From the NCBI GenBank assembly GCA_963664225.1, contig OY760937.1, positions 4,384,001 to 4,448,000 of the forward strand: 64,000 nucleotides of DNA. The letters run 5' to 3'. The stretch is from Verrucomicrobiia bacterium (GTDB lineage: Bacteria > Verrucomicrobiota > Verrucomicrobiia > Limisphaerales > UBA1319). Below the pieces are notes generated by a model, which was not told the DNA's origin, ran no database searches, and saw only the letters and a program-made list of their open reading frames with translations. Shown here piece by piece: positions 11,689 to 64,000 of the stretch (position 1 is the stretch's first letter; every line of letters begins with the position of its first letter). The position numbers and the translations under genes are program-made.

Positions 11689-13791
11689 ATGAACAACCAA
11701 TCTCAAATTCACACTTCGACAGTGCCGGGCAACGTGGACCCTTTGGCACACACGACCCCCACTCCCGCGAACCGCAAGCTGATCGCGCTTTGCCTTGCCT
11801 TGTTACTCAGCATTGGCGCGGGGCTTCTGGTGGGTTGCGCCTGCTGTAAATCCGGCGCTTCCGCAGGTGCGCAAAGCGACGCTACCGCTGGCTCGTACTC
11901 CCTCAAATCACCCGATGGCGCCATCGCGATGACTGTTCAAAGCAGTGGTAATGTGACCTATTCCGTCAGCGTGGATGGCCAGGTGATCGTCAATCCGTCA
12001 AAGCTCGGGCTGCAATTTCGCGATGGGATGAACCTTGGGCAGGATGTCGTTGTGGTCAAAGCCGAAACCCGCAGCGCCGATTCCACCTGGGAGAATCCAT
12101 TGGGCAAGCGTCGAACGGTCCGCGACCATTACAATCAACTCCGACTCGTATTAAGCGAGAAATCGAGTGCATCCAGGACCTTCGAGATCCTCTTCCGGGC
12201 TTACAACGATGGCGTTGGTTTCCGTTATGTTCTGCCCACGCAGAACGGTCCGGAATCCTTCATCCTGGAGCGCGAGCAAACCGAGTTCGCCTTTGCTTCG
12301 AACGCGACTTGCTTTGCCGGTCAACAGGAGAAGGGATTTGCAGGATCGCAGGAATGGGAGTTCAAGCGTGGACACCTGGCCGATATTAAACCGCAGTCTG
12401 TGGTGGGACTGCCGCTGCTGGTTCAAACTCCCGCCGCCTGGGTGGCGGTGGCCGAGGCCGACTTGCGAGACTGGTCGGGGATGTGGCTCGGCGGTGCGAC
12501 TAATTCAAATAATGCCAAGGCGTCAGAAGGCGTCACACTGACCGCCAAACTCGCCCCGCGCCGCGACGGTCAGGGCCTGGTCAAGGCGGGCTCGGCGCAA
12601 CATTCCCCCTGGCGCGTGTTGATGATTGGACGCCAACCGGGCCGGTTGGTTGAGAGCGATTTGATCAGCAACCTCAGCGCCCCCAGCCAGCTTAAAGATA
12701 CCGCGTGGATTCGTCCCGGGATGATGGCCTGGGATCATTGGTGGTCCGGCGATGTCCAGATGGACACGGCCACGATGAAGGAATACATCCAACTGGCCGC
12801 CGACATGGGCTGGCCTTACCAACTCGTCGATTGGCAATGGTACGGGCCATTTAACACGCCCGGCTCTGACATTACAAAGGTCAATCCCGCGCTCGACATG
12901 GACGAACTCCGTCGCTTTGCCAAGGAAAAGGGTGTCCGGCTCTGGGTGTGGCTTTATTGGACCGATGCGGATCGCAATGACGCCTACAAAAAGGCCTTTG
13001 CACTCTACGAGAAATGGGGAATTGCGGGTGTCAAAATCGATTTCATGGATAGTGACCATCAGGAAATGGTGAATTGGTATGAGAAACTGACTCGCGCTGC
13101 CGCGGAGCATCATCTGATGATCAATTTCCACGGGGCGTTCAAGACCTCCGGCTTTAACCGGACCTTCCCGAACCAGATCACCCGTGAAGGCATTATGGGG
13201 AACGAATACAATCGCTGGAGCAACCGAGTGACACCGGAGCATAAGCTCACATTACCGTTTACGCGGTTTCTCGCCGGTCCGGCGGACTTCACCCCGGGCG
13301 GTTTCCTCAATCGCCAGCCCGGCCAGTTCAAGCCCGACGACAAGGCCGCGCAGGTCCAGGGCACCCGCAGTGCCGAACTCGCGCTGTTCGTCCTCTATGA
13401 CAGCCCCATTTGCTGCGTCTGCGATCATCCGAGCCATTACCGCAATCAGCCCGGGGCGGATTTCCTGAAGATCGTGCCCACCGTCTGGGACGACACCCGC
13501 GTTCTGGACGCCGCCGTCGGCGAACACATGGTCACCGTCCGCCGCAGCGGCAACCGCTGGTTCCTCGGCGCGCTCACAGATCAGACCTCGCGCGACATTC
13601 CTGTGAAACTGGATTTCCTCGGACGCGGCTCATGGACACTCAAGCTTTGGAAAGACGCCCCCGACAGCGATGCAAATGCCGAACATCTGGCCACTGAGCA
13701 GCGAATCGTGACCTCGGCGGACGTTCTAAACTTGCACCTGGCCAAATCAGGCGGCGCAGTCGCCAGTTTCGAACCGGCTCCGCGCCGATAA
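11689..13791 (+). CDS. Glycoside hydrolase family 97, probable lipoprotein, probably retaining subtype
   Basis: SPDG, FRAYNDGVGFRY, SPWRV, WIRPG, GVKIDF (Asp at the nucleophile position), RTFPN..TREG, PFTRFLAGPADFTPG, VPTVWDDT; lipobox LVGC. Confidence 0.92.
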   Translation: MNNQSQIHTSTVPGNVDPLAHTTPTPANRKLIALCLALLLSIGAGLLVGCACCKSGASAGAQSDATAGSYSLKSPDGAIAMTVQSSGNVTYSVSVDGQVIVNPSKLGLQFRDGMNLGQDVVVVKAETRSADSTWENPLGKRRTVRDHYNQLRLVLSEKSSASRTFEILFRAYNDGVGFRYVLPTQNGPESFILEREQTEFAFASNATCFAGQQEKGFAGSQEWEFKRGHLADIKPQSVVGLPLLVQTPAAWVAVAEADLRDWSGMWLGGATNSNNAKASEGVTLTAKLAPRRDGQGLVKAGSAQHSPWRVLMIGRQPGRLVESDLISNLSAPSQLKDTAWIRPGMMAWDHWWSGDVQMDTATMKEYIQLAADMGWPYQLVDWQWYGPFNTPGSDITKVNPALDMDELRRFAKEKGVRLWVWLYWTDADRNDAYKKAFALYEKWGIAGVKIDFMDSDHQEMVNWYEKLTRAAAEHHLMINFHGAFKTSGFNRTFPNQITREGIMGNEYNRWSNRVTPEHKLTLPFTRFLAGPADFTPGGFLNRQPGQFKPDDKAAQVQGTRSAELALFVLYDSPICCVCDHPSHYRNQPGADFLKIVPTVWDDTRVLDAAVGEHMVTVRRSGNRWFLGALTDQTSRDIPVKLDFLGRGSWTLKLWKDAPDSDANAEHLATEQRIVTSADVLNLHLAKSGGAVASFEPAPRR

Positions 13792-19056: not shown

Positions 19057-20022
19057 TCATGCCTGGGCGACGGTTATTGTGCTGTTTAAGCGGCGGATGG
19101 CGAAAACAAGCAAAGCCAAAATAATGCCGTCAACGAGGAGTGTTGCCAGTCCCAGACCGGGATTCTTCATGACCAGGCTTATAAGTAGCACCGCTTGAAT
19201 GACATTGTGCAGATACCAGCCAATGCCAAAATACAGGAATCCCGGCGGGGCCAGCATGTGGTAACGACGAAGTAACCATGCATACAGGCAGATGACGCCC
19301 GCCCAAATTGGGATGAAAGCCACCACTGGCGCCTTGGATGCCGCAACGAATGCGAGTCCCCAGAATGGCATCAGCACGCTAATTCCAAGAAGTATCGGTT
19401 TGAGTGCGGAAGCCGATGGCAGACTTTGAGGTTTCTCTTTGGAGAATGCGCCCAATGTGAATAACAGGAGCATCAGCGACAATAAGACCGCCAATTCCAA
19501 TTTCGTTCCCGTAACCCCTTTCTCAGAGGTTCCAAGGAAGGCAGCGCAGGCCAGCAACATCAGAAGGATCCCAAGACAAAGAGCGAATTTGCCATTCAGC
19601 CATGGCTCACTTTTTATCTTTGGAAAGAAATACTGGGTCAACTGGATTGGAACAAGGACTGAGGCGATCGCGTGCCAGGCGCTGATACCTGCGGCCCATG
19701 GAAAGCTGATGCCAATCCAGTAACCATAGTCGTTGTATTGAGACACGGGCAGGCCAGTTTGGAGGATCATTGTTTTGGCTAGTAAACCCTCGTTGAATAT
19801 GGCGTACCCCATTCCCATGAAGAACAATCCCAGAATGCCACTGTGAAAACGAACCGCCAATTCCCGCACCAGAAGAATGGCCACGCCGTATCCAAAGAAA
19901 AGAAAAACCACCATTCCTGGATTGAGGAATCCAGACAGAGGCGTGCTACCTGTAAATAATTCAGGCAGCACGGTACAAAGGATCAGAAGAGTAATGGCTG
20001 CCAGGGCTTTCACGGCTGCCAT
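19057..20022 (-). CDS. Polytopic membrane protein of unknown function
   Basis: About 9-10 hydrophobic segments; PELFTGSTP, YG...LLVRE, EGL motifs. Confidence 0.75.
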   Translation of the reverse strand: MAAVKALAAITLLILCTVLPELFTGSTPLSGFLNPGMVVFLFFGYGVAILLVRELAVRFHSGILGLFFMGMGYAIFNEGLLAKTMILQTGLPVSQYNDYGYWIGISFPWAAGISAWHAIASVLVPIQLTQYFFPKIKSEPWLNGKFALCLGILLMLLACAAFLGTSEKGVTGTKLELAVLLSLMLLLFTLGAFSKEKPQSLPSASALKPILLGISVLMPFWGLAFVAASKAPVVAFIPIWAGVICLYAWLLRRYHMLAPPGFLYFGIGWYLHNVIQAVLLISLVMKNPGLGLATLLVDGIILALLVFAIRRLNSTITVAQA

Positions 20023-35180: not shown

Positions 35181-35810
35181 AGTCATCAACCTCCGGCAAA
35201 GCCGGAGGCTTGAAATTGTGAACCGCTCAAAGCGGGTTAATCTTGGAGCCGCTCGAAGCGGCTTTCGCTCCCGAACAATCCCAGTTGATCGAGGCGCTGG
35301 TCTGCCTTTTCCTGTTCTTGAATGTATAGCCGCACGGCAGCCTCGTTGCGTCCGACGGTCGACACCCAAAAGCCCCGTGCCCAAAAATGCTCTCCCACAA
35401 AGTTCCGCCGTTTCCCTCCGTATGTCCGGGCAATGTGAATGGCGCTCTTGCCCTTCAAATACCCCATGACTTGCGACACCGAGTATTTCGGAGGTATCGA
35501 CAGCAGCATGTGCACACGATCGACCATCAGGTGCCCCTCCCCAACCTCACTTTCCTTATGCCGCGCCAACTCCCGGAACAGGCTGCCCGGGTGCTTGCGC
35601 AGCGATGCGTATAGCGTTTTGCGCCGGTATTTCGGTATGAATACCACATGGTATTTGCATTCCCACTTCGTATGGTTAAGACTCTCATATTCGTTCATCA
35701 CTTGAGTTTCCTGTTGTTGACCTTGAGCGGTTCACAACTCGGATTCTCAAGTCACTCCCGGAGTTGTCAAACTCCGGGAGCCTCCCCGGCAAAGCCGGGG
35801 GAACTCCCAT
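35181..35810 (-). mobile_element. IS200/IS605-family element (tnpA only)
   Basis: tnpA flanked by matching subterminal hairpins CCTCCGGC-AAA-GCCGGAGG (35190-35208) and CCCCGGC-AAA-GCCGGGG (35784-35800); extra hairpin CTCCCGGAGTT/AACTCCGGGAG (35754-35780); exact ends approximate. Confidence 0.85.
35237..35698 (-). CDS. tnpA: IS200-family Y1 transposase, probably inactive (HUH motif reads DRVH)
   Basis: CKYHVVFIPKYRR, IPPKYSVS.VMGYLKGKS, FWARG..VSTVG, YIQEQ. Confidence 0.9.
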   Translation of the reverse strand: MNEYESLNHTKWECKYHVVFIPKYRRKTLYASLRKHPGSLFRELARHKESEVGEGHLMVDRVHMLLSIPPKYSVSQVMGYLKGKSAIHIARTYGGKRRNFVGEHFWARGFWVSTVGRNEAAVRLYIQEQEKADQRLDQLGLFGSESRFERLQD

Positions 35811-52705: not shown

Positions 52706-53392
52706 ATGTGGAAGACATTTGCGGAACAGGGCTATCCGGGCCGGTTGATTGCGGTCGAGGGTCTCGATGGCTCGGGAAAGTCAACCCAGATTCATTTGCT
52801 GAAACGGTGGCTTGAACTCCAGGGTTTGAAGGTGTTTTTTTCCGAGTGGAATTCCTCAACGCTGGTCAAGGCGGCCACGAGCAAGGCGAAGAAACGGGAA
52901 TTGCTGACGCCGACCACTTTCAGCCTGATTCACGCGACGGATTTCGCGGACCGCTATGAGCGCCAGATTGTTCCCCTGATCCGCGCCGGTTACATCGCGC
53001 TGTGCGACCGGTATATCTTCACCGCATTCGCCCGGGATACCGTGCGGGGCTGCCCGCCGGATTGGGTGCGCGGCAATTATAATTTCGCGCTGCTGCCCGA
53101 TCTGACGTTCTTTTTCAAGTCGCGTCTCGATGTTTCGCTGCAGCGCATTTTGGACAACCGTCCGCAGTTAAAGTACTTTGAGGCTGGAATGGATTTAGGC
53201 CTGTCAACAGATCCTTATGAGAGTTTCAAGTTGTTCCAGGGCAAAATTCTCGACCAATACCTGCACATGAGCGGCGAGTTCAAGTTCCTGGTCATCGATG
53301 CCAATCAGCCGATCGAGACCCAACAAAACCTGGTGCGTGAACTGGTTACGGCGCGGCTGGATCTTTCGGGGTTTGAATTGCAAAAAAGTTAA
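52706..53392 (+). CDS. Thymidylate kinase-like protein 1
   Basis: IAVEGLDGSGKSTQ P-loop, CDRY, PDLTFF. Confidence 0.88.
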   Translation: MWKTFAEQGYPGRLIAVEGLDGSGKSTQIHLLKRWLELQGLKVFFSEWNSSTLVKAATSKAKKRELLTPTTFSLIHATDFADRYERQIVPLIRAGYIALCDRYIFTAFARDTVRGCPPDWVRGNYNFALLPDLTFFFKSRLDVSLQRILDNRPQLKYFEAGMDLGLSTDPYESFKLFQGKILDQYLHMSGEFKFLVIDANQPIETQQNLVRELVTARLDLSGFELQKS

Positions 53393-53403
53393 TCTTTTCT
53401 CAC

Positions 53404-54213
53404 ATGGACGACACTCCCTACACTCCTTATACTCCGACGGCGCAGACGGTTCCACCACCGTCCTCGACGCCGCTCCTGCGGTTCCGGCACAACGAAAAGC
53501 TCCACGTCAAGGTTCCCAAACACACGCCCAAGCGCTTTTACGGCCACGGCATTCCCGGCGTCGATCTGGACAAGCTTGTGGGCAAGCTCATTGTGGTGGA
53601 AGGCGCGGATTGTTCGGGGCGCAGCACGCAGATCGAGCGGCTGGTGGAATGGCTCGAGGGGAGCGGCCACGCCACGGTGCGCGTGGGCCTGAAACTCTCG
53701 AACCTTGTGAGCGAGGAACTGGAACTGGCCAAGCAGGGCAATGTGCTCAGCCGCATCACGCTGAGCCTTTTCTACGCCACCGATTTCGCCGATCAGCTCG
53801 AGAACATGATCATTCCCGCGTTGCGAGCCGGCGCCATGGTGCTGGCGGATCGCTATATTTATACGCTGATGGCGCGCGACATGGTGCGCGGGATGGACGA
53901 GGCCTGGCTTACCAATCTCTACGGAATGGCCCTGGTGCCCGATGCGGTCTTTTATTTGAACGTCGCGCCGGAAGACCTGGTTCAGCGCAATTTTGCAAAG
54001 AACGCCGCTTTGGATTATTGGGAGAGCGGCATCGACCTTGGTTTGAGCCGGGATTGGTTTGACAGTTTTCTGACGTATCAGGGTCTGCTCCAGAAGCAGT
54101 TTCAGCGGTTGCAAACGACTTATGGTTTCACCATCGTCAGCGGGCACAGGCCCATTGAAACGGTGAATTCCGAACTGCGGCATAAAATTGAAGCGGTGCT
54201 CAACGGCAAATAA
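53404..54213 (+). CDS. Thymidylate kinase-like protein 2 with degenerate P-loop
   Basis: IVVEGADCSGRSTQ, ADRY, PDAVFY; start uncertain (Pro/Thr-rich N-terminus). Confidence 0.85.
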   Translation: MDDTPYTPYTPTAQTVPPPSSTPLLRFRHNEKLHVKVPKHTPKRFYGHGIPGVDLDKLVGKLIVVEGADCSGRSTQIERLVEWLEGSGHATVRVGLKLSNLVSEELELAKQGNVLSRITLSLFYATDFADQLENMIIPALRAGAMVLADRYIYTLMARDMVRGMDEAWLTNLYGMALVPDAVFYLNVAPEDLVQRNFAKNAALDYWESGIDLGLSRDWFDSFLTYQGLLQKQFQRLQTTYGFTIVSGHRPIETVNSELRHKIEAVLNGK

Positions 54214-54243: not shown

Positions 54244-55239
54244 ATGGCTGAAGCGAGCGAAAAGAAGGAATATTTCATCGGGGTGGACCTGGGCGGAACA
54301 AAGATTCTGGCGGGCGTGTTCAAGCCCCAGATCGAGTGCGTGGGCCGCTTTAAGATGAGCACCAAGCCCCAACGGGGGGCGAAGGGGGTCATCGAGCGTA
54401 TTGCCCGGTGTGTCGAGGATGCCATCGATGAATGCGACTTGAGCCTCAAGCAGGTGCGCGCCATCGGTGTCGGCGCTCCCGGCGCGGTGGATCCCGATTC
54501 CGGCCGGGTCATTTTCGCGCCCAATCTGGGATGGGAAAATGTGGATTTGAAGGCCGCCCTCGAGGATCAATTGAAGCTGCCGGTCTTCATTGAGAACGAC
54601 TGCAACGCCTGCACGCTGGGCGTGGTGGAGACCGAGTTGGATGCCAAGGTGAAAAATGTCATCGGCATTTTCCTGGGCACGGGCATCGGCGGCGGCATCA
54701 TCATCGACGGAAAGTTGTATTACGGTTTCAACCGCACCGCAGGGGAGATCGGGCACATGGTGATCGAGGTCGGTGGTCCGAAATGCGGTTGCGGCAATCG
54801 CGGCTGCTTTGAAGCCCTCGCAAGCCGCACCGCCATCTTCCGAAAAATCCAAAGCGCTGTCAAAGACGGGCAAAAAACCGTGCTTACCGACATGCTCGGC
54901 CCTTCCCTCGACGACATGCGCAGTGGGGATTTGCGCAAGGCCATTCGCCAGGGGGATAAATTTGTCGAGAAAGTCGTGGAGGAAGCGGCCGAATACACCG
55001 GCATTGCCGTGGCCAATTTGATCAACATCTTCAATCCCGAGGTGGTCATCCTCGGCGGAGGCGTCATTGCCGCCCTGGCGGATGAAATGATGGCGGTCAT
55101 TGTGGAAACCGCCAAGGACTACACCTTTCCGGGCACATTCAAAGGCATCAACATCATCGCCACCAAACTCGGTGACGACGCCGGGATATTCGGCGGCGCG
55201 GCATTGGCCCGGATAAAAGCGCGCAAATTGGAGCAGTGA
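54244..55239 (+). CDS. ROK family sugar kinase (glucokinase-like)
   Basis: GVDLGGTKI, ENDCN, GTGIGGG, GEIGH...CGCGNRGCFE. Confidence 0.93.
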   Translation: MAEASEKKEYFIGVDLGGTKILAGVFKPQIECVGRFKMSTKPQRGAKGVIERIARCVEDAIDECDLSLKQVRAIGVGAPGAVDPDSGRVIFAPNLGWENVDLKAALEDQLKLPVFIENDCNACTLGVVETELDAKVKNVIGIFLGTGIGGGIIIDGKLYYGFNRTAGEIGHMVIEVGGPKCGCGNRGCFEALASRTAIFRKIQSAVKDGQKTVLTDMLGPSLDDMRSGDLRKAIRQGDKFVEKVVEEAAEYTGIAVANLINIFNPEVVILGGGVIAALADEMMAVIVETAKDYTFPGTFKGINIIATKLGDDAGIFGGAALARIKARKLEQ

Positions 55240-55279
55240 ATCTGGGGGGGGCGCGATTCATTAGGCATAGGACTGAGGT

Positions 55280-55735
55280 GCAAACGCAATATTCCCGTTC
55301 GGGCGATATCACCACGGAGGGGAAAAAGTCACCGCTAATGTGCGCTAATGGACGCTAATAATTGGAGATAAAACTCATAGGAGGAAAACACAGGGCTGTG
55401 AAAGGGGAAATATTAACATGGATGGACAGGATTAACAGGATGGGGAAAAGGGCGGAATGGATAAGGACAGAATGGAAAAAGGCGGAATGGATAATTGACA
55501 ATTGACCCCGGGTGGGGTTGGTTGAGGAGGAAAATATCAGTTGGAAGGAAAAAAAGGCACGCCCTCATCCCGGCCTTCTCCCCCAGGAGAAGGAGGAGTA
55601 TTGCGAGCCTTGGGTTTATTGGACGGTTTGGAGGATGCCGCCGCATGGGATTACATGCCCCACACCGCAGACTGGAGTCCTGGCTGGGTTCGTACGGTTC
55701 AGGCTTTTACCAGCTTTCTGAGTTTTGTCGTGCGC
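55280..55735. repeat. Repeat block X, copy 1 (~455 bp)
   Basis: Near-identical to 55989-56443 (offset 708-709), about ten differences by eye. Confidence 0.92.
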
Positions 55736-55745
55736 CCAGCGGATG

Positions 55746-56012
55746 GATTTGAAGCGAGGCGGGAGATGGAGTTGATTCAACGCCTACAGCGTTGGGGATT
55801 CTGAGGGACGAGGACCCCGGGTAGTCCCCGGCGGACAACCCGGGGCTGAATGATTTAATCCCTTCGGGATAAAGAGATGTGGGAGGCAACCCCGTATAGC
55901 AGAGTGATGCAACCCGTTCCGGGTTGAGGTGCGCAAATTGGAGTAGTGAACCTGAGGCCTGGGATGCATCAGGCAAAGGCTTGGGGACGCAAACGTAATA
56001 TTCCCGCTCGGG
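55746..56012. repeat. Repeat block Y, copy 1 (267 bp), contains REP-like hairpins
   Basis: Near-identical to 60493-60759 (offset 4747). Confidence 0.92.
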
Positions 56013-56443
56013 CGACATCACCACGGAGGGGAAAAGTCACCGCTAATGTGCGCTAATGGACGCTAATAATTGGAGATAAAACTCATAGGAGGAAAAGACA
56101 GGGCTGTGAAAGGGGAAATATTAACATGGATGGACAGGATTAACAGGATGGGGAAAAGGGCGGAAAGGATAAGGACAGAATGGATAAAGGCGGAATGGAT
56201 AATTGACAATTGACCCCGGGTGGGGTTGGTTGAGGAGGAAAATATCAGTTGGAAGGAAAAAAAGGCACGCCCTCATCCCGGCCTTCTCCCCCAGGAGAAG
56301 GAGGAGTATTGCGAGCCTTGGGTTTATTGGACGGTTTGGAGGATGCCGCCGGGTGGGATTACATGCCCCACGCCGCAGACTGGAGTCCTGGCTGGGTTCG
56401 TACGGTTCAGGCTTTTACCAGCTTTCTGAGTTTTGTCCTGCGC
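55989..56443. repeat. Repeat block X, copy 2
   Basis: Direct repeat of 55280-55735; its first 24 bp overlap the end of Y1. Confidence 0.92.
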
Positions 56444-56509
56444 TCCGCATATTCCTGTGTTGCATTTTCCTGCTGACCAATCGGCTTCGCTATGATTTGC
56501 TTGTGCCTC

Positions 56510-59500
56510 ATGAGCAACAAAGTCCAGGGCGAACCGCAATCCGTGCCAGCGACGGAGGCATTTGAGCAGGCATTCAGCGTGGTTCAATCGCTGGCCCGGG
56601 ATTTTGAGGCGAACAAGGCCCATTTTCTTTCGCCATCGTACCAGGAAAGCGAAGTCCGAAAGGATTACATCGACAAGTTTCTGATGGCGCTGGGATGGGA
56701 CGTCAATCACGACCGGCAAAAGAACCCATTTGAGCAGGAGGTCAAGGTGGAACGGGGCGTGAACATGCAAGGCTCCCAACGCCGCGCGGATTACGCTTTT
56801 TACGCCGCCCCCAATTTCCGGGACGTGCGGTTCTTCGCGGAGGCCAAGAAACCGTTTGGGGACATCGCGACCCAGCAGAATTATTTTCAGACCATCCGCT
56901 ACGGGTGGAACGCCAAAACGCCCATTGCCATTCTCACGGACTTTGAGCAATTCCAGATTCTGGATTGCAGGAATAAGCCGAACATCGATGCGGCGCTGAC
57001 GCATTGCATCCGCAAGTTTCATTTTTCCGAGTATGCCGACAAGGACGCCTTCGCATTCATCTACTACCTGTTTTCGCGCGAAGCGGTTGCGAATGGATCG
57101 CTTGATAAATTCGCCGAAACCCTCCCCAAAAAGCGTGGCAAAGCGGCTCAGCGTGGGTTGTTCAAGGAGGGGCAGAGCATTGACGATGCGTTCCTGGAGG
57201 AACTGGACGAATACCGTGACACGCTTGCCCGCGCCTTCAAAAACAATAATCCAGATTTGGACGGCGACACGCTCACGGAGATGACGCAGCGGACGATTGA
57301 CCGCCTGGTTTTCATGCGGTTTATCGAGGACAAGCAGATTCAAGCCGAGGAGTATGTGTCCAATTTCGGGCGCAAGAGCACCGCGTGGCAGGACTTCATT
57401 ACCACGTCACGCCGGTTGGATGGCATCTACAACGGCATTGTTTTTAAGCGGCATGACATTCTGGACGCCCCCGCCTTCAAGGTGGACGACGAGGCTTTTG
57501 CGGATATTTGCAGGAAGCTCGCGCATGACAACTCGCCCTACGATTTTAACAGCATCCCGATCCACATCCTTGGCAGCATCTACGAGCGCTTTCTGGGCAA
57601 GGTCATCGTCACCACGGACAAACGCGCCCGACTTGAGGAAAAGCCCGAAGTCCGAAAAGCGGGGGGCGTATATTACACGCCTGAGTATATCGTCCGTTAC
57701 ATTGTGGAGAATACGGTCGGCAAGGTGATCGAGGACAAGACACCGGCACAGATCGAGACCCTGCGCTTTGCGGACATTGCGTGCGGCAGCGGGTCTTTCC
57801 TGCTGGGCGTCTATGACCTGCTGCTCCGTTATCATGTCAAATGGTTCAACGAGAATCCCGAGAAAGCCAAAAAGGCGGGGTGCATCGCCAATGACGACGG
57901 GGGGTGGAGCCTGTCCCTGCACCAGCGCAGGCGCATTCTGGTGAACAATATTTACGGCGTGGACATCGATCATCAGGCCGTGGAAGTGGCGCAACTTTCG
58001 CTCTACCTGAAACTGTTGCAGGATGAAACGACCGCCTCGGCGCGCCAGCATCAACTGGAGTTTCAAGAAACGATCCTGCCCTCGCTCAATAAAAACATCG
58101 TGTGCGGCAATTCGCTCATCGGCATGGATATATTGACGGGTCAACTCCTGGCGAGCGATGAGGAACGCAAATTGAATCCGATGGATTACGAACAGCGTTT
58201 TCCCGAAGTCATGAAGAAAGGCGGGTTCGATGCGATTGTGGGGAATCCGCCGTATGTGCGGCAAGAAACCCTGTCCAATATCAAAGGATATCTTGAAACA
58301 CATTACCAATCGTTTAATGGCATTGCAGACCTCTACACTTACTTCATGGAGAAGTCGCTGAGTCTCCTAAGAAACGGCGGTTTATTCAGTTACATCGTAT
58401 CCAGCAGTTTTCTGCGTGCCACGTATGGTGAGCCGTTGCGCCGTCACTTAAAATCAGTGGGCACTATTTTGCAGATGGTGGATTTTGGCGGTTTGGCAGT
58501 CTTTGCGAGTGCAAAAGATACCTATGTGTGTATTCCACTGATTGAAAAGGGCACCACTGAGCCACTGCCACGTATTCAGATCTGCAAAATCCCATCCCTG
58601 AAAATCACGAACCTGATGGCGTATGTTGCTGAACATTTTTTCACAATACCGGCGGAACGATTTTCAGCGGCGGCATGGCCGTTGAAGTCCGATGCAGAGG
58701 CGGCAGTTTTTGAAAAAGTGACGAAAGGCGGAATGCCGCTTGGGGATTACGTCCAACGGAAAATATTCTATGGCCTAAAAACAGGTTTAAATGATGCTTT
58801 TGTCATTACGTCAGAGCAGCGACAGAAGATAATTGAGCAGTCGCCAGGGAGTGCGTCGCTGATAAAACCATTTCTTGGCGGCGAAGACATTCGGCGCTAC
58901 CGCATTGAAGATGATGGAAAATTGATGATCGTTATTCCGTGCGGGTGGACACGAGCAGAAATCAACAAGACCAAGCAAGGAAACGCTTCTGAAAAGCAAG
59001 CATGGGAATGGTTAAATGAGAACCATGCTGCCATCGCCAAGCATCTTGAACAATATGAGGAATCGCTCCGAAAACGCCAAGACCAGGGAGATTTCTTCTG
59101 GGAATTGAGACCCTGCGATTATTACTCCCACCTCGACGCACCGAAAATCATTTTCCCGGACATCTGCAAAGCGCCACGTTTCTATGTTGACCGTGAAGGG
59201 ATTTATTTAACAAATACCGCATATTGTCTCGGTTCCGAGAGTCTTTATCTGCTTGGGCTGCTCAATGGCCGGTTGTTTTGGTTTGCGATCAGCAACATCA
59301 GCATTCCTTTTGGCGTCCGGGCTGGCGAATACCGCTACCGCCTGATTTATCAATACATGGAGCAAGTGCCCATTCACCCGATTGATGCCAAGAAACCGGC
59401 AGAAAAAGCAAAGCACGACAAAATTGTTTCGTTGGTGGAGCAGAACCTGTTAGTCCAAAAGCAGGCGGCCTCCGCCCAGTCCGACAAGGACAAGGATTTT

Positions 59501-59617
59501 TACGGGAACAAATGCGCGGCCATTGACAGCCAGATCGATGCGCTCGTTTACGAGTTGTATGATCTGACAGCGGAGGAAATCAGCATTGTGGAAGGCGCCT
59601 CGGAGGGCAAAGGCTGA
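56510..59617 (+). CDS. Type IIG (Eco57I-like) fused restriction endonuclease / N6-adenine methyltransferase
   Basis: Nuclease ADY...FAEAKKP, ILTDFE; LGSIYERFLG, RKAGGVYYTP; motif I DIACGSGSFL; IYGVDID; motif IV GNPPY; TaqI-C-like KIIFPDI...YLLGLLN. Confidence 0.93.
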   Translation: MSNKVQGEPQSVPATEAFEQAFSVVQSLARDFEANKAHFLSPSYQESEVRKDYIDKFLMALGWDVNHDRQKNPFEQEVKVERGVNMQGSQRRADYAFYAAPNFRDVRFFAEAKKPFGDIATQQNYFQTIRYGWNAKTPIAILTDFEQFQILDCRNKPNIDAALTHCIRKFHFSEYADKDAFAFIYYLFSREAVANGSLDKFAETLPKKRGKAAQRGLFKEGQSIDDAFLEELDEYRDTLARAFKNNNPDLDGDTLTEMTQRTIDRLVFMRFIEDKQIQAEEYVSNFGRKSTAWQDFITTSRRLDGIYNGIVFKRHDILDAPAFKVDDEAFADICRKLAHDNSPYDFNSIPIHILGSIYERFLGKVIVTTDKRARLEEKPEVRKAGGVYYTPEYIVRYIVENTVGKVIEDKTPAQIETLRFADIACGSGSFLLGVYDLLLRYHVKWFNENPEKAKKAGCIANDDGGWSLSLHQRRRILVNNIYGVDIDHQAVEVAQLSLYLKLLQDETTASARQHQLEFQETILPSLNKNIVCGNSLIGMDILTGQLLASDEERKLNPMDYEQRFPEVMKKGGFDAIVGNPPYVRQETLSNIKGYLETHYQSFNGIADLYTYFMEKSLSLLRNGGLFSYIVSSSFLRATYGEPLRRHLKSVGTILQMVDFGGLAVFASAKDTYVCIPLIEKGTTEPLPRIQICKIPSLKITNLMAYVAEHFFTIPAERFSAAAWPLKSDAEAAVFEKVTKGGMPLGDYVQRKIFYGLKTGLNDAFVITSEQRQKIIEQSPGSASLIKPFLGGEDIRRYRIEDDGKLMIVIPCGWTRAEINKTKQGNASEKQAWEWLNENHAAIAKHLEQYEESLRKRQDQGDFFWELRPCDYYSHLDAPKIIFPDICKAPRFYVDREGIYLTNTAYCLGSESLYLLGLLNGRLFWFAISNISIPFGVRAGEYRYRLIYQYMEQVPIHPIDAKKPAEKAKHDKIVSLVEQNLLVQKQAASAQSDKDKDFYGNKCAAIDSQIDALVYELYDLTAEEISIVEGASEGKG

Positions 59618-59711
59618 ATCAAACCACCGGCCATGGCATCGCAGGGGCCTTGGAAGTCGGTCATCCCTCCGGGATAAATAATTGTGTGAGGTGTAATCCC
59701 AGAGTAGTCCG

Positions 59712-60640
59712 TTCCTCGCAATCCCGGGGGTGCGTGGGATGGGTGGGCAGCGCGGCCTAATGCGAACTACGATGCGTAGGGGATCGATTTGAAGCGAGGC
59801 GGAAGATGGATTTGATTCAACGCCTACAGCGTTGGGGATTCTGAGGGACGAGGACCCCGGGTAGTCCCCGGCGGACAACCCGGGGCTGAGTGATTTAATC
59901 CCTTCGGGATAAAGACGTTTGGGAGGCGAACCCTGGGCAGTTTGTTTCCTCGCAATCCCGGGGGTGCGTGGGATGGGTGGGCCGCGCGGCCTAATGCGAA
60001 CTGCGATGCGTATAGGGGATCGATTTGAAGCGAGGCGGGAGATGGAGTTGATTCAACGCCTACAGCGTTGGGGATTCTGAGGGACGAGGACCCCGGGTAG
60101 TCCCCGGCGGACAACCCGGGGCTGAATGATTTAATTCCTTCGGGATAAAGAGATGTGGGAGGCAACCCCGTGGGTAGTTTGTTTCCTCGCAATCCCGGGG
60201 GTGCGTGGGATGGGTGGGCAGCGCGGCCTAATGCGAACTGCGATGCGTATAGGGGATCGATTTGAAGCGAGGCGGAAGATGGATTTGATTCAACGCCTAC
60301 AGCGTTGGGGATTCTGAGGGACGAGGACCCCGGGTAGTCCCCGGCGGACAACCCGGGGCTGAGTGATTTAATCCCTTCGGGATAAAGACATTTGGGAGGC
60401 GAACCCTGGGCAGTTTGTTTCCTCGCAATCCCGGGGGTGCGTGGGATGGGTGGGCAGCGCGGCCTAATGCGAACTGCGATGCGTAGGGGATCGATTTGAA
60501 GCGAGGCGGGAGATGGAGTTGATTCAACGCCTACAGCGTTGGGGATTCTGAGGGACGAGGACCCCGGGTAGTCCCCGGCGGACAACCCGGGGCTGAATGA
60601 TTTAATCCCTTCGGGATAAAGAGATGTGGGAGGCAACCCC
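59712..60640. repeat. Tandem array of four ~236-bp palindrome-rich (REP-like) units, alternating A/B variants
   Basis: TTCCTCGCAATCCC anchors at 59712, 59946, 60183 and 60419; each unit has CAACGC/GCGTTG, CCCCGGGT..ACCCGGGG and ATCCC/GGGAT hairpins (the last with one mismatch in unit 2). Confidence 0.95.
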
Positions 60641-60759
60641 GTATAGCTAAGTGATGCAACCCGTTCCGGGTTGAGGTGCGCAAATTGGAGCAGTGAACAT
60701 GAGACCTGGGATGCATCAGGCAAAGGCTTGGGGACGCAAACGCAATATTCCCGTTCGGG
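60493..60759. repeat. Repeat block Y, copy 2
   Basis: Direct repeat of 55746-56012; overlaps the fourth array unit and ends inside the first hipBA palindrome. Confidence 0.92.
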
Positions 60760-60865
60760 AATAAAACAGAGGTAAATGAGGCCGCCACACTGAATTATTC
60801 CCGCTCGGGAATATATGGCTTGATTTGCCCGCGAATGCGAGTAATGTTACCGCACGGTAACATTA
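60746..60865 (+). promoter_or_regulatory. Three palindromic putative HipB operators and candidate hipBA promoter
   Basis: TATTCCCG-TT-CGGGAATA (60746-60763), TATTCCCG-CT-CGGGAATA (60796-60813), TAATGTTACCG-CA-CGGTAACATTA (60842-60865); TTGATT-N16-TAATGT at 60820-60847. Confidence 0.75.
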
Positions 60866-60876
60866 GGGCATTTGCC

Positions 60877-61107
60877 ATGAAACAGACTTCTCAAAGTATA
60901 GGCGCGTTGGTCAGAATGACCCGCAAAAGCATGGGTGTGACCCAAAAGGATCTGGCCATGACATCCGGCACAGGTTTGCGATTCATCATTGAAATGGAGA
61001 AAGGGAAGCCGACCTGTCAGTTTGGCAAGGTGCTCACGGTGCTGCATACCCTGGGAATCAAAACCGAATTCATCGCGCCTGTTGGGAACGGGAGGAAAGG
61101 AGGTTAA
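60877..61107 (+). CDS. hipB: HipB-like XRE HTH antitoxin
   Basis: RKSMGVTQKDLAMTSGTGLRFIIEMEKGKPT; immediately upstream of hipA. Confidence 0.9.
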   Translation: MKQTSQSIGALVRMTRKSMGVTQKDLAMTSGTGLRFIIEMEKGKPTCQFGKVLTVLHTLGIKTEFIAPVGNGRKGG

Positions 61108-61110
61108 TCC

Positions 61111-62355
61111 ATGGTCAGGACACTCGATGTTTATTTGCACCGGGACCTGGTCGGCCGACTCATTCAGGACGAGCATGGCCAGATGTCCTTCCAATATGCT
61201 GAAAGCTGGTTGAACAGTGCCGGAGCGGTTCCACTCTCCCATTCCCTGTTGCTCAGGAAAGAAGAATTCAACCGAAACGAGTGCCGGGGTTTTTTCGCGG
61301 GAATTTTGCCGGATGAAGGCAAACGCGAAATAATCGCAAAGAATCTCGGGATCAGCGCCAGAAACGATTTTGCCATGCTGGAGCAAATTGGGGGTGAATG
61401 CGCCGGAGCGGTGACGTTTATACCAGCGGGTGAAAAACTGCCCGAACGCAATTACCGTTACCGGCAATTGGCCGGAAAGGAACTGGCCGAAATTCTAAGG
61501 ATGTTGCCGCGCCGTCCGCTGATGGCGGGAGAGGATGGCATCCGGCTTTCATTGGCGGGCGCCCAGGATAAAATTGCCGTGCGCGTTCACAACAATGAAA
61601 TCTCGATGCCACTTGGTGGAGCCCCCAGCACGCATATTCTAAAACCGGCGATTGAGCACTTTGAAGGGATCGTGTTCAACGAAGCGTTTTGCATGAAACT
61701 GGCACGCGCGATTGGCCTGCAAACCGCAAAAACGGAGATTGGCAGGGTGGAGACCATCGATTACCTGCTTGTGGAGCGTTATGACCGCGTGGTGTCGAAG
61801 GATTCTGCGAGCGGCGCGGAATACCTGGAGCGGGAGCATCAGGAGGATTTTTGTCAGGCTCTTGGAATCATTCCTGACAACAAATATCAAAACGAAGGCG
61901 GTCCATCGATCCAGCAGTGCTTTGGCCTCTTGCGCGAATTATCCACCACCCCGGTGATCGATCTCCAACGCCTGCTGGATGCCGTCATATTCAATTTTCT
62001 TATTGGAAACCACGATGCCCACGGAAAGAATTTTTCATTGCTTTACGGTGGCACAACACGGCTTGCACCGCTCTATGATGTTCTGAGCACCGCCTATTAT
62101 CCGGATCTGACCAGGAAAATGGCGATGAAGATTGGCGGTGAATATGCCTCCGACAAGGTGTTGCCAAAGCATTTTGACCAGTTCGCCGATGAAGCGGGAC
62201 TCGCCAAGCCAATGGTAAAACGGCGTGTGCGGGAACTGGCGGAAAGCGTCGTGGCAAAAGCGCCTGCATTGATCACGGAGCAGCCAACGACACGGGCCGT
62301 CGCCCAACTCATTCAAGGCCGCTGCGCAAAAACATTGGAGAAATTTAAAGATTAG
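61111..62355 (+). CDS. hipA: HipA family kinase toxin
   Basis: N-terminal LSHSL..FFAGILPD; SLAGAQDK, HILKP, HQEDFCQALG, GNHDAHGKNFS, LAPLYD; GGAGG RBS. Confidence 0.96.
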   Translation: MVRTLDVYLHRDLVGRLIQDEHGQMSFQYAESWLNSAGAVPLSHSLLLRKEEFNRNECRGFFAGILPDEGKREIIAKNLGISARNDFAMLEQIGGECAGAVTFIPAGEKLPERNYRYRQLAGKELAEILRMLPRRPLMAGEDGIRLSLAGAQDKIAVRVHNNEISMPLGGAPSTHILKPAIEHFEGIVFNEAFCMKLARAIGLQTAKTEIGRVETIDYLLVERYDRVVSKDSASGAEYLEREHQEDFCQALGIIPDNKYQNEGGPSIQQCFGLLRELSTTPVIDLQRLLDAVIFNFLIGNHDAHGKNFSLLYGGTTRLAPLYDVLSTAYYPDLTRKMAMKIGGEYASDKVLPKHFDQFADEAGLAKPMVKRRVRELAESVVAKAPALITEQPTTRAVAQLIQGRCAKTLEKFKD

Positions 62356-62447
62356 GCGCATGCGTCGGCCCATGGGCAGATGTTTCGGGAGGTGGATTTT
62401 TGCGTTTTTGGGATTCGATGGTAGTTTTGAGTGTTGTTTTTTAAGTT

Positions 62448-62951
62448 ATGAAAATTGCAAAATATATCACAAGTGTTCTCGGGATTTGCGCCCTCTGCGG
62501 CGCGGGCGTCGTGGCCAATGCGGCCGATGAAATGACGGAAACCAAGCCGGATGCAAAAGTGGATGCAAAAGCGGAAGCCACGCCGTATCCGTTGAGCAAG
62601 TGCGTCGTTTCCGGGCAGGCCTTCGGCAAGATGGGCAAGCCGGTGACGGAGGTTTACAAAGGGCGCGAAATCAAATTCTGTTGCAAGGATTGCAAGGCGT
62701 CGTTCGATAAGTCGCCGGATGGTTTTATCGAGAAGATTGACGCCGCCGCCAAGGAAGCTGCAGCCAAGAATCCCTATACATTGACGACTTGCCTGGTATC
62801 CGACGAGAAGCTCGGCGGGAGCATGGGCACGCCCTACACGTTTGTGTATGCGGATAAAGAGGTCAAACTCTGCTGCAAGTCCTGCCTGAAAGACTTCACC
62901 AAGGAACCGGCCAAGTATATGAAGAAAATGGCCCAGGCCTCGGCAAAGTAA
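62448..62951 (+). CDS. Exported protein with two YHS/TRASH-like Cys-rich repeats (putative metal binding)
   Basis: Signal peptide; YPLSKCVVSG..MG.P..FCCKDC and YTLTTCLVSD..MG.P..LCCKSC. Confidence 0.82.
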   Translation: MKIAKYITSVLGICALCGAGVVANAADEMTETKPDAKVDAKAEATPYPLSKCVVSGQAFGKMGKPVTEVYKGREIKFCCKDCKASFDKSPDGFIEKIDAAAKEAAAKNPYTLTTCLVSDEKLGGSMGTPYTFVYADKEVKLCCKSCLKDFTKEPAKYMKKMAQASAK

Positions 62952-62981
62952 GCCGCAGGCTGCGTGCAGGTTTTCCTCCCG

Positions 62982-63998
62982 TTAAAGCAGTCTGGATATT
63001 TGGGGAGTGGTGGCGGCGCCCGTGGTGCCCAGTTGGTGAATGACCACGGACGCGGCGGCACTCGCGATTTCCAGGGTTTCGGTTAATGACGCCCCGGAGG
63101 CGAGCGCCAGGGTCAGGTTGGCCGTCACCGCATCTCCCGCACCGACGATATCAATGGGTCCCCGCAAGGGCAGGGCGTGGACATGAGCGGTCTCTCCCGA
63201 AGCGGATGCCCCGACGATTCCATTCTCCGCCAGCGTGATGAACACGGTGTGATTCTGGCGTTTGGCCAGTTGCGCCGCTTTTTCCTGGACTTCTTGCAGA
63301 TTGAACCGGTTTTCCACATTTAAAAGCCGGGCGAGTTCCGCCGCATTCATTTTGAAAATGAAAGGTGGAAAATCGCGCAACCCGCGCCGGCTGTCGGCCA
63401 TTACAATCACTTCATTGTTTCGGGAACGGGTCTGCGTGAGTTCGTGGATCTGAGCGAGCACTTTCCTGGTTAAAACACCTGTTTGCGCGGCATCGACCTG
63501 TTCCAGCAGGATGATGGCATCGATTTGTTTCTCGTTTATCAGGGAGCGGATGGATTCGCAGAGTTGGTTTTCGAGGGAAGGGGGCGTCGGGGTCCAATTC
63601 TTGAAATCGAGTCGGCTTAATTCCACCGGCGGCTTGTCTGGGGAGCATTCGATGGGTTTGGTATAGGTGAACGTCTGGCGCAGAGGAGTGGAAATGAAAT
63701 GCTCCATGCGAACGCCGGGCCGATTTTGCAGGGCGCGTTGGAGCTCCCAACCTTCGCCATCCTCACCGGCGATGCCCACCACGTTGATTTCACCCGCACC
63801 CAGCGCGCAGAGGTTGTTGACGATGGTGCCCGCGCCACCGGGTTGGGGACGCACCCGCAGCACGTTGTGAACGGCCAGGCCGGTTTCGATGGAGATTTCG
63901 GTTTTCGCGGGATCGATCTCCAAATATCGGTCGAGGCAGAAGTCCCCGATCACCGCCAAGCGCAGACTGGCATAATGATCGCTGATGGATTTAAAACG
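62982..63998 (-). CDS. PfkB family kinase (HldE/RfaE domain I-like), 5'-truncated by the window edge
   Basis: VIGDFCLDRY, PGGAG, anion-hole motif DIVGAGD; frame open to the window end. Confidence 0.88.
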   Translation of the reverse strand, partial: RFKSISDHYASLRLAVIGDFCLDRYLEIDPAKTEISIETGLAVHNVLRVRPQPGGAGTIVNNLCALGAGEINVVGIAGEDGEGWELQRALQNRPGVRMEHFISTPLRQTFTYTKPIECSPDKPPVELSRLDFKNWTPTPPSLENQLCESIRSLINEKQIDAIILLEQVDAAQTGVLTRKVLAQIHELTQTRSRNNEVIVMADSRRGLRDFPPFIFKMNAAELARLLNVENRFNLQEVQEKAAQLAKRQNHTVFITLAENGIVGASASGETAHVHALPLRGPIDIVGAGDAVTANLTLALASGASLTETLEIASAAASVVIHQLGTTGAATTPQISRLL

Positions 63999-64000
63999 GG

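Follow-up and report, generated by a model that had tools for sequence, protein, structure and literature searches.

What kind of genetic element places a restriction-modification (RM) gene between direct repeats behind a housekeeping gene, without a gene for its own mobility? This question is raised by a stretch of 64,000 nt from a Verrucomicrobiia bacterium (assembly GCA_963664225.1, contig OY760937.1, positions 4,384,001 to 4,448,000), here called the window, in which a Type IIG RM gene lies between repeated blocks downstream of a ROK-family glucokinase gene (ROK) and upstream of the genes hipBA. An earlier sequence-only reading described two pairs of blocks, X and Y, and suggested that they form an empty and a filled slot in a cassette array for defence genes. 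The data presented here point to a different arrangement. Whichever enzyme was responsible, the locus probably consists of two tandem copies of a non-autonomous insert that is flanked by repeats and carries an RM gene. The whole insert of 5,456 bp (55304-60759) lies directly behind the glucokinase gene and comprises a gene-less unit, E1, followed by a unit with the RM gene, E2 (Table 1).

The repeats were mapped by a repeat search and by blastn of 55150-60900 against the entire window. Domains were identified with Pfam on 60 open reading frames (ORFs) of the window, defence genes with PADLOC profiles, RNA families with Rfam and tandem repeats with Tandem Repeats Finder (TRF). For comparison, a genome scan with the glucokinase protein gave 80 loci from Verrucomicrobia at 61-84% identity, with the window's own genome not among them; the best related locus by ROK identity (84%) has unrelated downstream DNA. 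Downstream regions were analysed in 79 of these loci (one was too short), which gave 377 ORFs, and Pfam was run on 100 of those: one representative for each of the 40 clusters with at least two members, and the 60 singletons nearest to ROK. The C-terminal comparison of the glucokinase used 120 listed homologs, one of which, P0125, is a protein sequence only.

Both repeat pairs described earlier are where they were said to be and lie far above chance. X1 and X2 align over 55221-55735 and 55931-56443 (94.6% of 516 nt, E = 0, blastn), and Y1 and Y2 over 55738-56012 and 60485-60759 (96.7% of 275 nt, E = 2e-129). The spacings given by the repeat search are 708-710 and 4747 bp, and blastn found no further copies elsewhere in the window. 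There are two pairs, and about 4 kb (4,041 bp) separates the blocks of the second, but the view of X and Y as separate blocks was not borne out. The end of X1 (55735) adjoins the start of Y1 (55738-55741), and X2 (from 55989) starts within Y1 (to 56012). Because of this overlap, the picture is of one unit repeated in tandem, the periods being 709 and 4747 bp. Y itself comprises the final, incomplete unit of a 237-bp tandem array and its tail. The order of the parts is ROK/A1 - X1 - M - tail - A2 - X2 - RM - array - tail - A3 - pal1 - pal2 - hipBA, where A is a boundary block, M is a motif that recurs in the array, and pal1 and pal2 are palindromes.

Both units are bounded by block A, about 95 nt long and present in three copies in direct order, which contains the final ~30 nt of ROK, the stop codon and ~65 nt of downstream sequence. 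The sequence-only reading saw the X and Y repeats at the boundaries but missed the third copy of this junction block and its identity with the ROK 3' end. A2 and A3 are identical at 89 of 94 positions (94.7%), and A1 matches A2 at 73 and A3 at 74 of 97 (~76%). This similarity is unevenly spread. Between A1 and A3 the two short blocks O1 and O2 are identical at all 44 positions, compared with 30 of 53 in the remaining columns (Fisher p = 6.6e-8). X follows both A1 and A2, whereas a different sequence follows A3. As read from the sequence, the layout is attL - E1 - attP-like junction - E2 - attR, as in tandem integration. Each boundary is a copy of the ROK 3' end, the target of the insertion, which argues for tandem integration and not for slots in a fixed array. 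The geometry noted before, with an RM-less and an RM-bearing unit in tandem between like boundaries, is borne out.

Table 1. Features of the insert and its surroundings (positions in the window)
Feature	Position	Strand	Content or basis
ROK-family glucokinase, conserved target gene	54244..55239	+	Pfam ROK, E = 1.1e-70
A1, native boundary copy	55209..55303	+	contains O1 and O2
O1, 20-nt identity block spanning the ROK stop codon	55221-55240		
O2, 24-nt identity block at the right end of A	55280-55303		
E1, gene-less unit, 709 bp	55304..56012	+	X1, 5-nt junction, one M, tail, A2
X1	55304-55735	+	within E1
Purine-rich 15-nt repeat inside X	55444-55491, 56152-56202		3.2-3.4 copies (3.4 in X2)
M copy in E1	55766-55892		
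A2, internal boundary copy, X2 directly after	55919..56012	+	attP-like junction
E2, 4,747-bp unit	56013..60759	+	X2, leader, RM gene, 237-bp array, tail, A3
X2 (56013-56443) and 48-nt leader, purine-rich, non-coding	56013..56491	+	precedes the RM gene
Type IIG restriction-modification enzyme, 1,041 aa	56492..59617	+	Pfam, PADLOC
Tandem array, 4.1 units of 234-237 bp	59663..60642	+	TRF period 237, 3.9 copies, 95% matches
G-quadruplex motifs, one per full array unit	59726-59747, 59960-59981, 60197-60218, 60433-60454	+	regular expression
M copies in the array	59806-59932, 60042-60168, 60279-60405, 60513-60639		
A3, right-hand boundary copy, native sequence after	60666..60759	+	
pal1 and pal2, perfect 16-nt palindromes ATTCCCGYTCGGGAAT	60747-60762, 60797-60812	.	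pattern search
24-nt palindrome, 12 nt before the hipB start codon	60842-60865		read from the sequence
hipB	60877-61107	+	Pfam HTH_19/HTH_3
hipA	61111-62355	+	HipA_C 5e-58, Couple_hipA 2.2e-25

The end of the glucokinase bears on which of the three copies is the resident one. Homologs named glucokinase or ROK were found at 71-97% identity, and 76 of the 120 listed have 327 aa and end in a short basic tail. The window protein carries a four-residue C-terminal extension that is shared by one of the 120, P0125 (97% identical), whose end is of the A1 type and not of the type found in the units (A'). This indicates that A1 is the native, resident arm. A2 and A3 encode ~9 ROK-like codons behind stop codons (the A2 tail reads ...RVEVRKLE), which suggests that A' is a carried piece of a related host's ROK 3' end. 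A 41-nt repeat behind hipA was considered as a displaced ROK fragment and rejected as chance (tblastn E = 0.76).

A1 and A3 cease to be alike 3 nt beyond the centre of pal1, of which pal2 is a second copy 50 nt on. Truncated copies with the left part only lie at the A1-X1 and A2-X2 junctions (55291 and 56000), and a pattern search of the window returned pal1, pal2 and these two truncated copies only. Related TCCC..GGGA hairpins are, within the window, confined to the locus. O2 overlaps the left half and centre of the perfect palindrome just downstream of ROK.

We propose that a unit would consist of an X leader, optional cargo, an M-containing repeat, a tail and A', the diverged copy of the insertion target. 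Such a unit would have entered as a circle by a single crossover within O2, with the native A1 remaining to the left and the A' of the unit to the right, and a second, related unit (2-5% diverged) would have accreted at the same site to give A1 - E1 - A2 - E2 - A3, E1 and E2 having arrived independently. O2 is the most economical crossover point because A1 is native, A2 is close to A3 and X1 is close to X2. Since the units encode no recombinase, the crossover would have depended on an activity supplied in trans. The likeliest is a site-specific recombinase that uses the CCCG-YT-CGGG palindrome; host homologous recombination through the short identity block is less likely. The former is favoured because the similarity ends at the palindrome centre, because related hairpins are found both at the left edge of A' and at each M, and because two arrivals through 24 nt of identity seem unlikely for RecA. 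This is also the weakest step of the proposal, as no enzyme was found, and the whole chain with its trans-acting site-specific enzyme is offered tentatively, as the best of the accounts considered.

Several points weigh against the integration account. No recombinase was found by Pfam in the 60 window ORFs, the only candidate being an unrelated Y1 transposase 20 kb away. Neither an empty site, nor a related autonomous element, nor a second cargo was seen in the 80 related loci, the comparison covering the window and those loci. A clean deletion of E2 in its present form would not give the E1 junction (55736-55740), and the 76% identity of A1 and A3 is far below that of the long target duplications published for other RM units (43-47 of 46-47 positions in Table 2 of PMC2853133). 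Selection on the C-terminus of ROK and on a regulatory palindrome of hipBA could by itself account for the conservation of O1 and O2. Also, the window ends 3.2 kb past A3, and the insert may belong to a larger island that has a fourth A copy and an integrase on its far side.

The lack of mobility genes, already noted in the sequence-only reading, was upheld: Pfam found no integrase or transposase domain in 55240-64000, and the units contain no integration or transfer genes. The Y1 transposase (IS200-like, 35237-35701, minus strand, Pfam Y1_Tnp 2e-33) is flanked by hairpins of its own and by a perfect inverted repeat of 15 nt (~35190-35810); it was rejected as a helper because its hairpins are unrelated to the palindromes of the locus. 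No tRNA or tmRNA target was found in the window. A plasmid or phage origin was also rejected, as blastn (distant mode) against 72,556 plasmids and 50,697 phages gave no match to X, to the array or to the locus as a whole.

The alternative that survives best dispenses with a dedicated recombinase: a repeat-flanked RM unit would have looped out in a related strain and entered by a RecA-type single crossover in the 20-24-nt blocks of A, with unequal crossing-over between A copies as the tandem step. This would produce the same pattern of divergence between A1 and A2-A3, and it agrees with the lack of a recombinase in the locus. Documented cases of RM genes that lie between direct repeats of >30 bp and have no mobility genes span Types I-IV, with Type IIG among them (PMC2853133), and the features of those units are found here, with the restriction and modification functions inside the insert, a length of <20 kb and a repeat of >30 bp. 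On the other hand, the repeats of the published cases are near-identical, compared with 76% here, and the end of the similarity at the palindrome centre is left unexplained. At least two events through 24 nt of identity would be needed as well. An identity of 24 nt is at the lower limit for RecA recombination. We regard homology-driven mobility as the main rival, though a somewhat unlikely origin of the locus.

Duplication in place can be judged from the differences between the copies. X1 and X2 are identical at 423 of 432 positions, the Y core differs at 3 of 178 and A2 and A3 at 5 of 94. Two of the nine X1/X2 differences fall within the 15-nt repeat. E1 holds one type-a half-unit of the array, without a G-quadruplex motif, and its small ORFs have no Pfam match; at its junction, 5 nt together with neighbouring bases match neither parent. 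We infer that E1 is a cargo-less relative or a deletion derivative. Without any mobility, X - RM - array would have arisen here or come in a single time, followed by a local 4.7-kb tandem duplication, a 4-kb deletion in the left copy, and drift. The sequence-only reading had named duplication followed by deletion as its own fallback, and in one respect this holds, since it reproduces the block order. A 4-nt microhomology, TGCG, is also present at both deletion end points, and a dimer duplication clearly occurred inside the 237-bp array. The fit to the 2-5% divergence of the units and the 24% divergence of A1 is poor, however. Direct repeats of 275-430 nt at 97-98% should collapse or homogenise before differences of 2-5% arise, a first event would still be needed to bring the 24%-diverged ROK 3' end to the right of the array, and the E1 junction bases match neither parent. 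Because such a divergence is hard to keep in an in-situ duplicate, the separate arrival of diverged units is the easier explanation, and local duplication appears unlikely.

The array and the motif M open a further possibility. The array units are of two types that alternate as b,a,b,a, and alignment at an offset of 471 gives 95.3% compared with 93.3% at an offset of 235. A scan of both strands of the whole window by regular expression (four runs of at least 3 G, loops of 1-7) found canonical G-quadruplex motifs only in the array, four in all. Within each unit, 105 nt match positions 11997-12100 of one related locus, L033, from another species, at 72-73% identity (blastn). The M copy of L033 (11987-12107, minus strand) has the opposite orientation and is placed immediately at the Ppx stop codon, 115 nt before an MqsA/helix-turn-helix (HTH) antitoxin-like gene. 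An alignment of M with 127 columns from the two lineages supports five helices, with 97.8% of cells paired. Of 35 pairs, 7 are changed on both sides, a number reached in 0 of 500 shuffles and not approached by slid controls, although the structure was derived from the same alignment, which effectively holds two independent sequences. A covariance model of M found the five window copies and that of L033 only, within 1.28 Mb. On either strand, the core of M has a more stable fold than shuffled sequences (z = -2.5 to -4.0), so folding does not tell the strand or distinguish RNA from DNA hairpins.

Known families did not account for these sequences. No Rfam family was found for M, and its identification as Acido-Lenti-1 RNA was rejected, with 18.3 bits against a threshold of 37 in one window copy only and no match for the L033 copy. 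Rfam over 54800-61200 gave nothing at E <= 1. X and the whole 237-nt unit were rejected as stable RNAs, as their folding energies are not below those of shuffles (z = -0.65 to +1.4). The array was likewise rejected as a protein gene: its 299-aa minus-strand ORF has no Pfam match above cut-off and no PADLOC match, the unit spacings of 234/237/236 break the frame, and M in L033 is intergenic. That the first half of the array unit is a decayed A' was rejected too, because 152 of 500 shuffles reached its local score.

These features might be more than passengers. The 237-bp unit, with its G-quadruplex and three-hairpin M, and the CCCG-YT-CGGG palindromes at every boundary might be the working part of an undescribed, integrase-less gene carrier of Verrucomicrobia that moves defence and toxin-antitoxin genes. 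The hairpins would then be the sites of a hairpin-specific recombinase encoded elsewhere, or alternatively M would be a new structured RNA guiding or controlling the exchange; the G-quadruplexes would promote breakage and recombination, and genes would land at the 3' ends of housekeeping genes. The position of M in L033, at the Ppx stop codon and beside an antitoxin-like gene, would on this carrier hypothesis be a second insertion of the family. We consider a carrier of this kind quite unlikely. The hairpin motif and the G-quadruplex array do provide leads to a new structured element tied to such units.

The related loci bear most directly on the earlier proposal of a general array for defence genes. 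Gene order shared with the 80 relatives stops exactly at the ROK stop codon. Upstream, homologs of the thymidylate kinase Tmk are present in 64 of the 80 loci; in the window, two adjacent thymidylate-kinase-like paralogs (~40% identical) precede ROK at 52706-54213, and the pair and its order are kept in most of the relatives. In one locus (L080, 4000-10000) an insertion of ~6 kb separates ROK from the second Tmk gene, a distance of <100 nt in the other loci. Downstream, Ppx/GppA lies within 7 kb in 45 of 79 loci and is the first ORF of at least 80 aa in 38 of these; Ppx is absent from the window. The genes between ROK and Ppx in the relatives were rejected as mobile cargo, being polyphosphate-related (Ppk, CHAD, histidine phosphatase). 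None of the 377 downstream ORFs matches window positions 55240-64000, and RM, HipB, HipA and the next two window genes have no match of >60 aa in any of the 80 loci. X and A have no blastn match there save a 41-nt hairpin in L059, and no integrase, transposase or RM domain was found by Pfam in the 100 downstream ORFs. The DNA beyond the ROK stop codon is thus lineage-specific, and insertion at this site is not common in the phylum. The ROK 3' end was accordingly rejected as a general integration hot spot, a second ROK 3' end being present in 0 of 80 relatives, where only unrelated local repeats were seen. These lie just after ROK or Ppx and include an array with a period of ~101 bp (L018 11939-12274) and dispersed inverted copies of ~90 nt (L039 10977-11075, 13767-13859 and 6642-6729; L031 11030-11109 and ~19211-19316), all unrelated in sequence to X, A and M.

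The general cassette array thus finds no counterpart in the relatives, which, in the regions and ORFs covered, lack X, A, the RM gene, hipBA, an integrase and a duplicated ROK 3' end, and the other cargo expected in the slot downstream of the ROK kinase was not seen in any of them. A dedicated platform, with X and Y as fixed slot boundaries, a recombinase encoded elsewhere and defence genes swapped as in integrons, would explain why an empty and a filled unit lie side by side, why the boundary hairpins belong to one family and why hipBA is next door. Against this, an integron integrase and attI were not found beside the array, the attC core was not seen by eye at the junctions, and E2 begins with a 476-nt leader and is not a promoterless ORF. 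With no slots or other cargo at the site in 80 relatives and a single cargo type known, such a platform is very improbable.

That the arrangement is an assembly artefact of mis-joined or duplicated repeat copies is extremely unlikely, for although tandem repeats are a classic source of assembly error, the units differ by 2-5%, which speaks against collapsed or duplicated sequence, E1 has its own junction sequence and the source contig is 5.78 Mb long. The sequence-only reading had likewise taken differences between the copies as an argument against assembly duplication.

The genes called in the earlier reading were identified correctly, including the position of hipBA after Y2. The RM chain comprises an N-terminal nuclease, a gamma-type N6-adenine methyltransferase and a C-terminal TaqI-like specificity domain, with Pfam matches to Eco57I (1.9e-43), MmeI_Mtase, N6_Mtase, TaqI_C and HSDR_N, and the PADLOC profile REase_MTase_IIG (1.5e-185) covers residues 31-1032 and 994 of 1,011 profile positions. 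Full-length homologs are up to 83% identical, and PDB matches cover the methyltransferase part only. The gene is complete and its product is a predicted Type IIG enzyme, so that E2 would be a small defence module. Its 3' third (58000-59400, the region of the specificity domain) has a G+C content of 0.47-0.50, below that of the rest of the gene and of the window (0.55), which would fit an exchange of the recognition domain. X2 shows strong G and A skew on the plus strand and a hairpin at ~56264-56300; X2 and the leader presumably hold the promoter and 5' untranslated region of the RM gene, and no sigma-70-like promoter was found in the locus.

The hipB and hipA genes are separated by 3 nt and have the features of a toxin-antitoxin pair, with the HTH gene upstream and coupling and kinase domains in HipA. 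The palindrome just before hipB is a likely candidate for the hipBA operator. pal1 and pal2 could be further hipBA operators instead of recombination sites. Judged by their domains, neither the RM enzyme nor HipBA is unusual for its family.

The layout has consequences for the RM gene. Recombination between Y1/A2 and Y2/A3 (275 nt, 97%) would delete exactly E2, with loss of restriction; the earlier prediction that Y1 x Y2 (or A2 x A3) exchange removes exactly 4,747 bp including the RM gene follows directly from the repeats. Recombination between X1 and X2 would delete E1, and either deletion would release a circle with one A'-X junction that could re-insert at an A site. The idea of reversible gain and loss stands in one direction, loss by homologous recombination being easy, while regain needs the re-integration of a non-replicating circle. 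The tandem layout predicts precise deletions of 4,747 and 709 bp and a circle of known junction, and these deletions would switch restriction off in part of the population. The diverged copy of the insertion site in the units would point to an origin in a related genome at the same position. The locus would be a clear and well-delimited example, from a little-studied phylum, of an RM gene that moves and is lost without a mobility gene of its own.

Among known systems, integron arrays share with this locus gene-sized units in series, imperfect palindromes at the boundaries and units that contain no recombinase. They differ in that IntI and attI were not found here (the upstream neighbours are Tmk-Tmk-ROK, and the 60 window ORFs were covered), that each boundary is a copy of a chromosomal target, that E2 has its long leader, and that no attC core was seen by eye. 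From its sequence, the locus is not an integron array. Elements of the IMEX type (integrative mobile elements exploiting Xer) at dif borrow host recombinases, and they resemble the locus in having no recombinase gene of their own, in forming tandem arrays and in crossing over at a palindromic site. Here the palindrome lies beside the glucokinase gene and not at the terminus, it does not appear to resemble a dif site, and nothing links it to Xer.

A closer likeness is found in cis-mobilizable elements (CIMEs) that accrete in tandem at a gene's 3' end, as described for ICESt1-type elements of Streptococcus (PMC5704250), and in the Dehalococcoides ssrA islands, 15 of which are without an integration module (PMC3146451). 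The shared features are a position at a housekeeping gene's 3' end, the order attL - element - internal att - element - attR, the lack of integration and transfer genes, the retention of both boundary repeats and an adaptive cargo. The direct att-like repeats of the locus include the target 3' end, as A spans the ROK stop codon, and an internal copy lies between the units. A related integrase-bearing element was found neither in the window nor in the 100 downstream ORFs of related loci. Compared with the described elements, the units here are 0.7 and 4.7 kb long, the repeat of ~95 nt holds two short perfect blocks, and the target is a protein gene in Verrucomicrobia at a site used by none of the 80 relatives.

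Insertion of RM genes with long target duplication was reportedly first described in a Helicobacter pylori paper of 2000. The RM units of this kind in a later study (Furuta, Abe and Kobayashi 2010, PMC2853133) resemble the present one in carrying an RM gene (here Type IIG) without transposase or integrase in an insert of <20 kb, between direct repeats that are far longer than a transposon target duplication and of which one is the target sequence. At the present locus, restriction and modification both lie inside the inserted segment, in a single 1,041-aa enzyme, the insert is 5,456 bp without mobile-element genes, and the repeat of ~95 nt exceeds 30 bp, though only 74 of 97 positions are identical. 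The differences from the units in that study are the 76% identity of the repeats, the presence of the unit twice in tandem, once without RM, and the 237-bp array and 430-nt leader; an empty site was not seen in the 80 related loci. Taken together, this is probably a repeat-flanked RM unit free of mobility genes in tandem accretion, a known style of restriction-gene mobility with unusual extras in the motif M and the G-quadruplex array.

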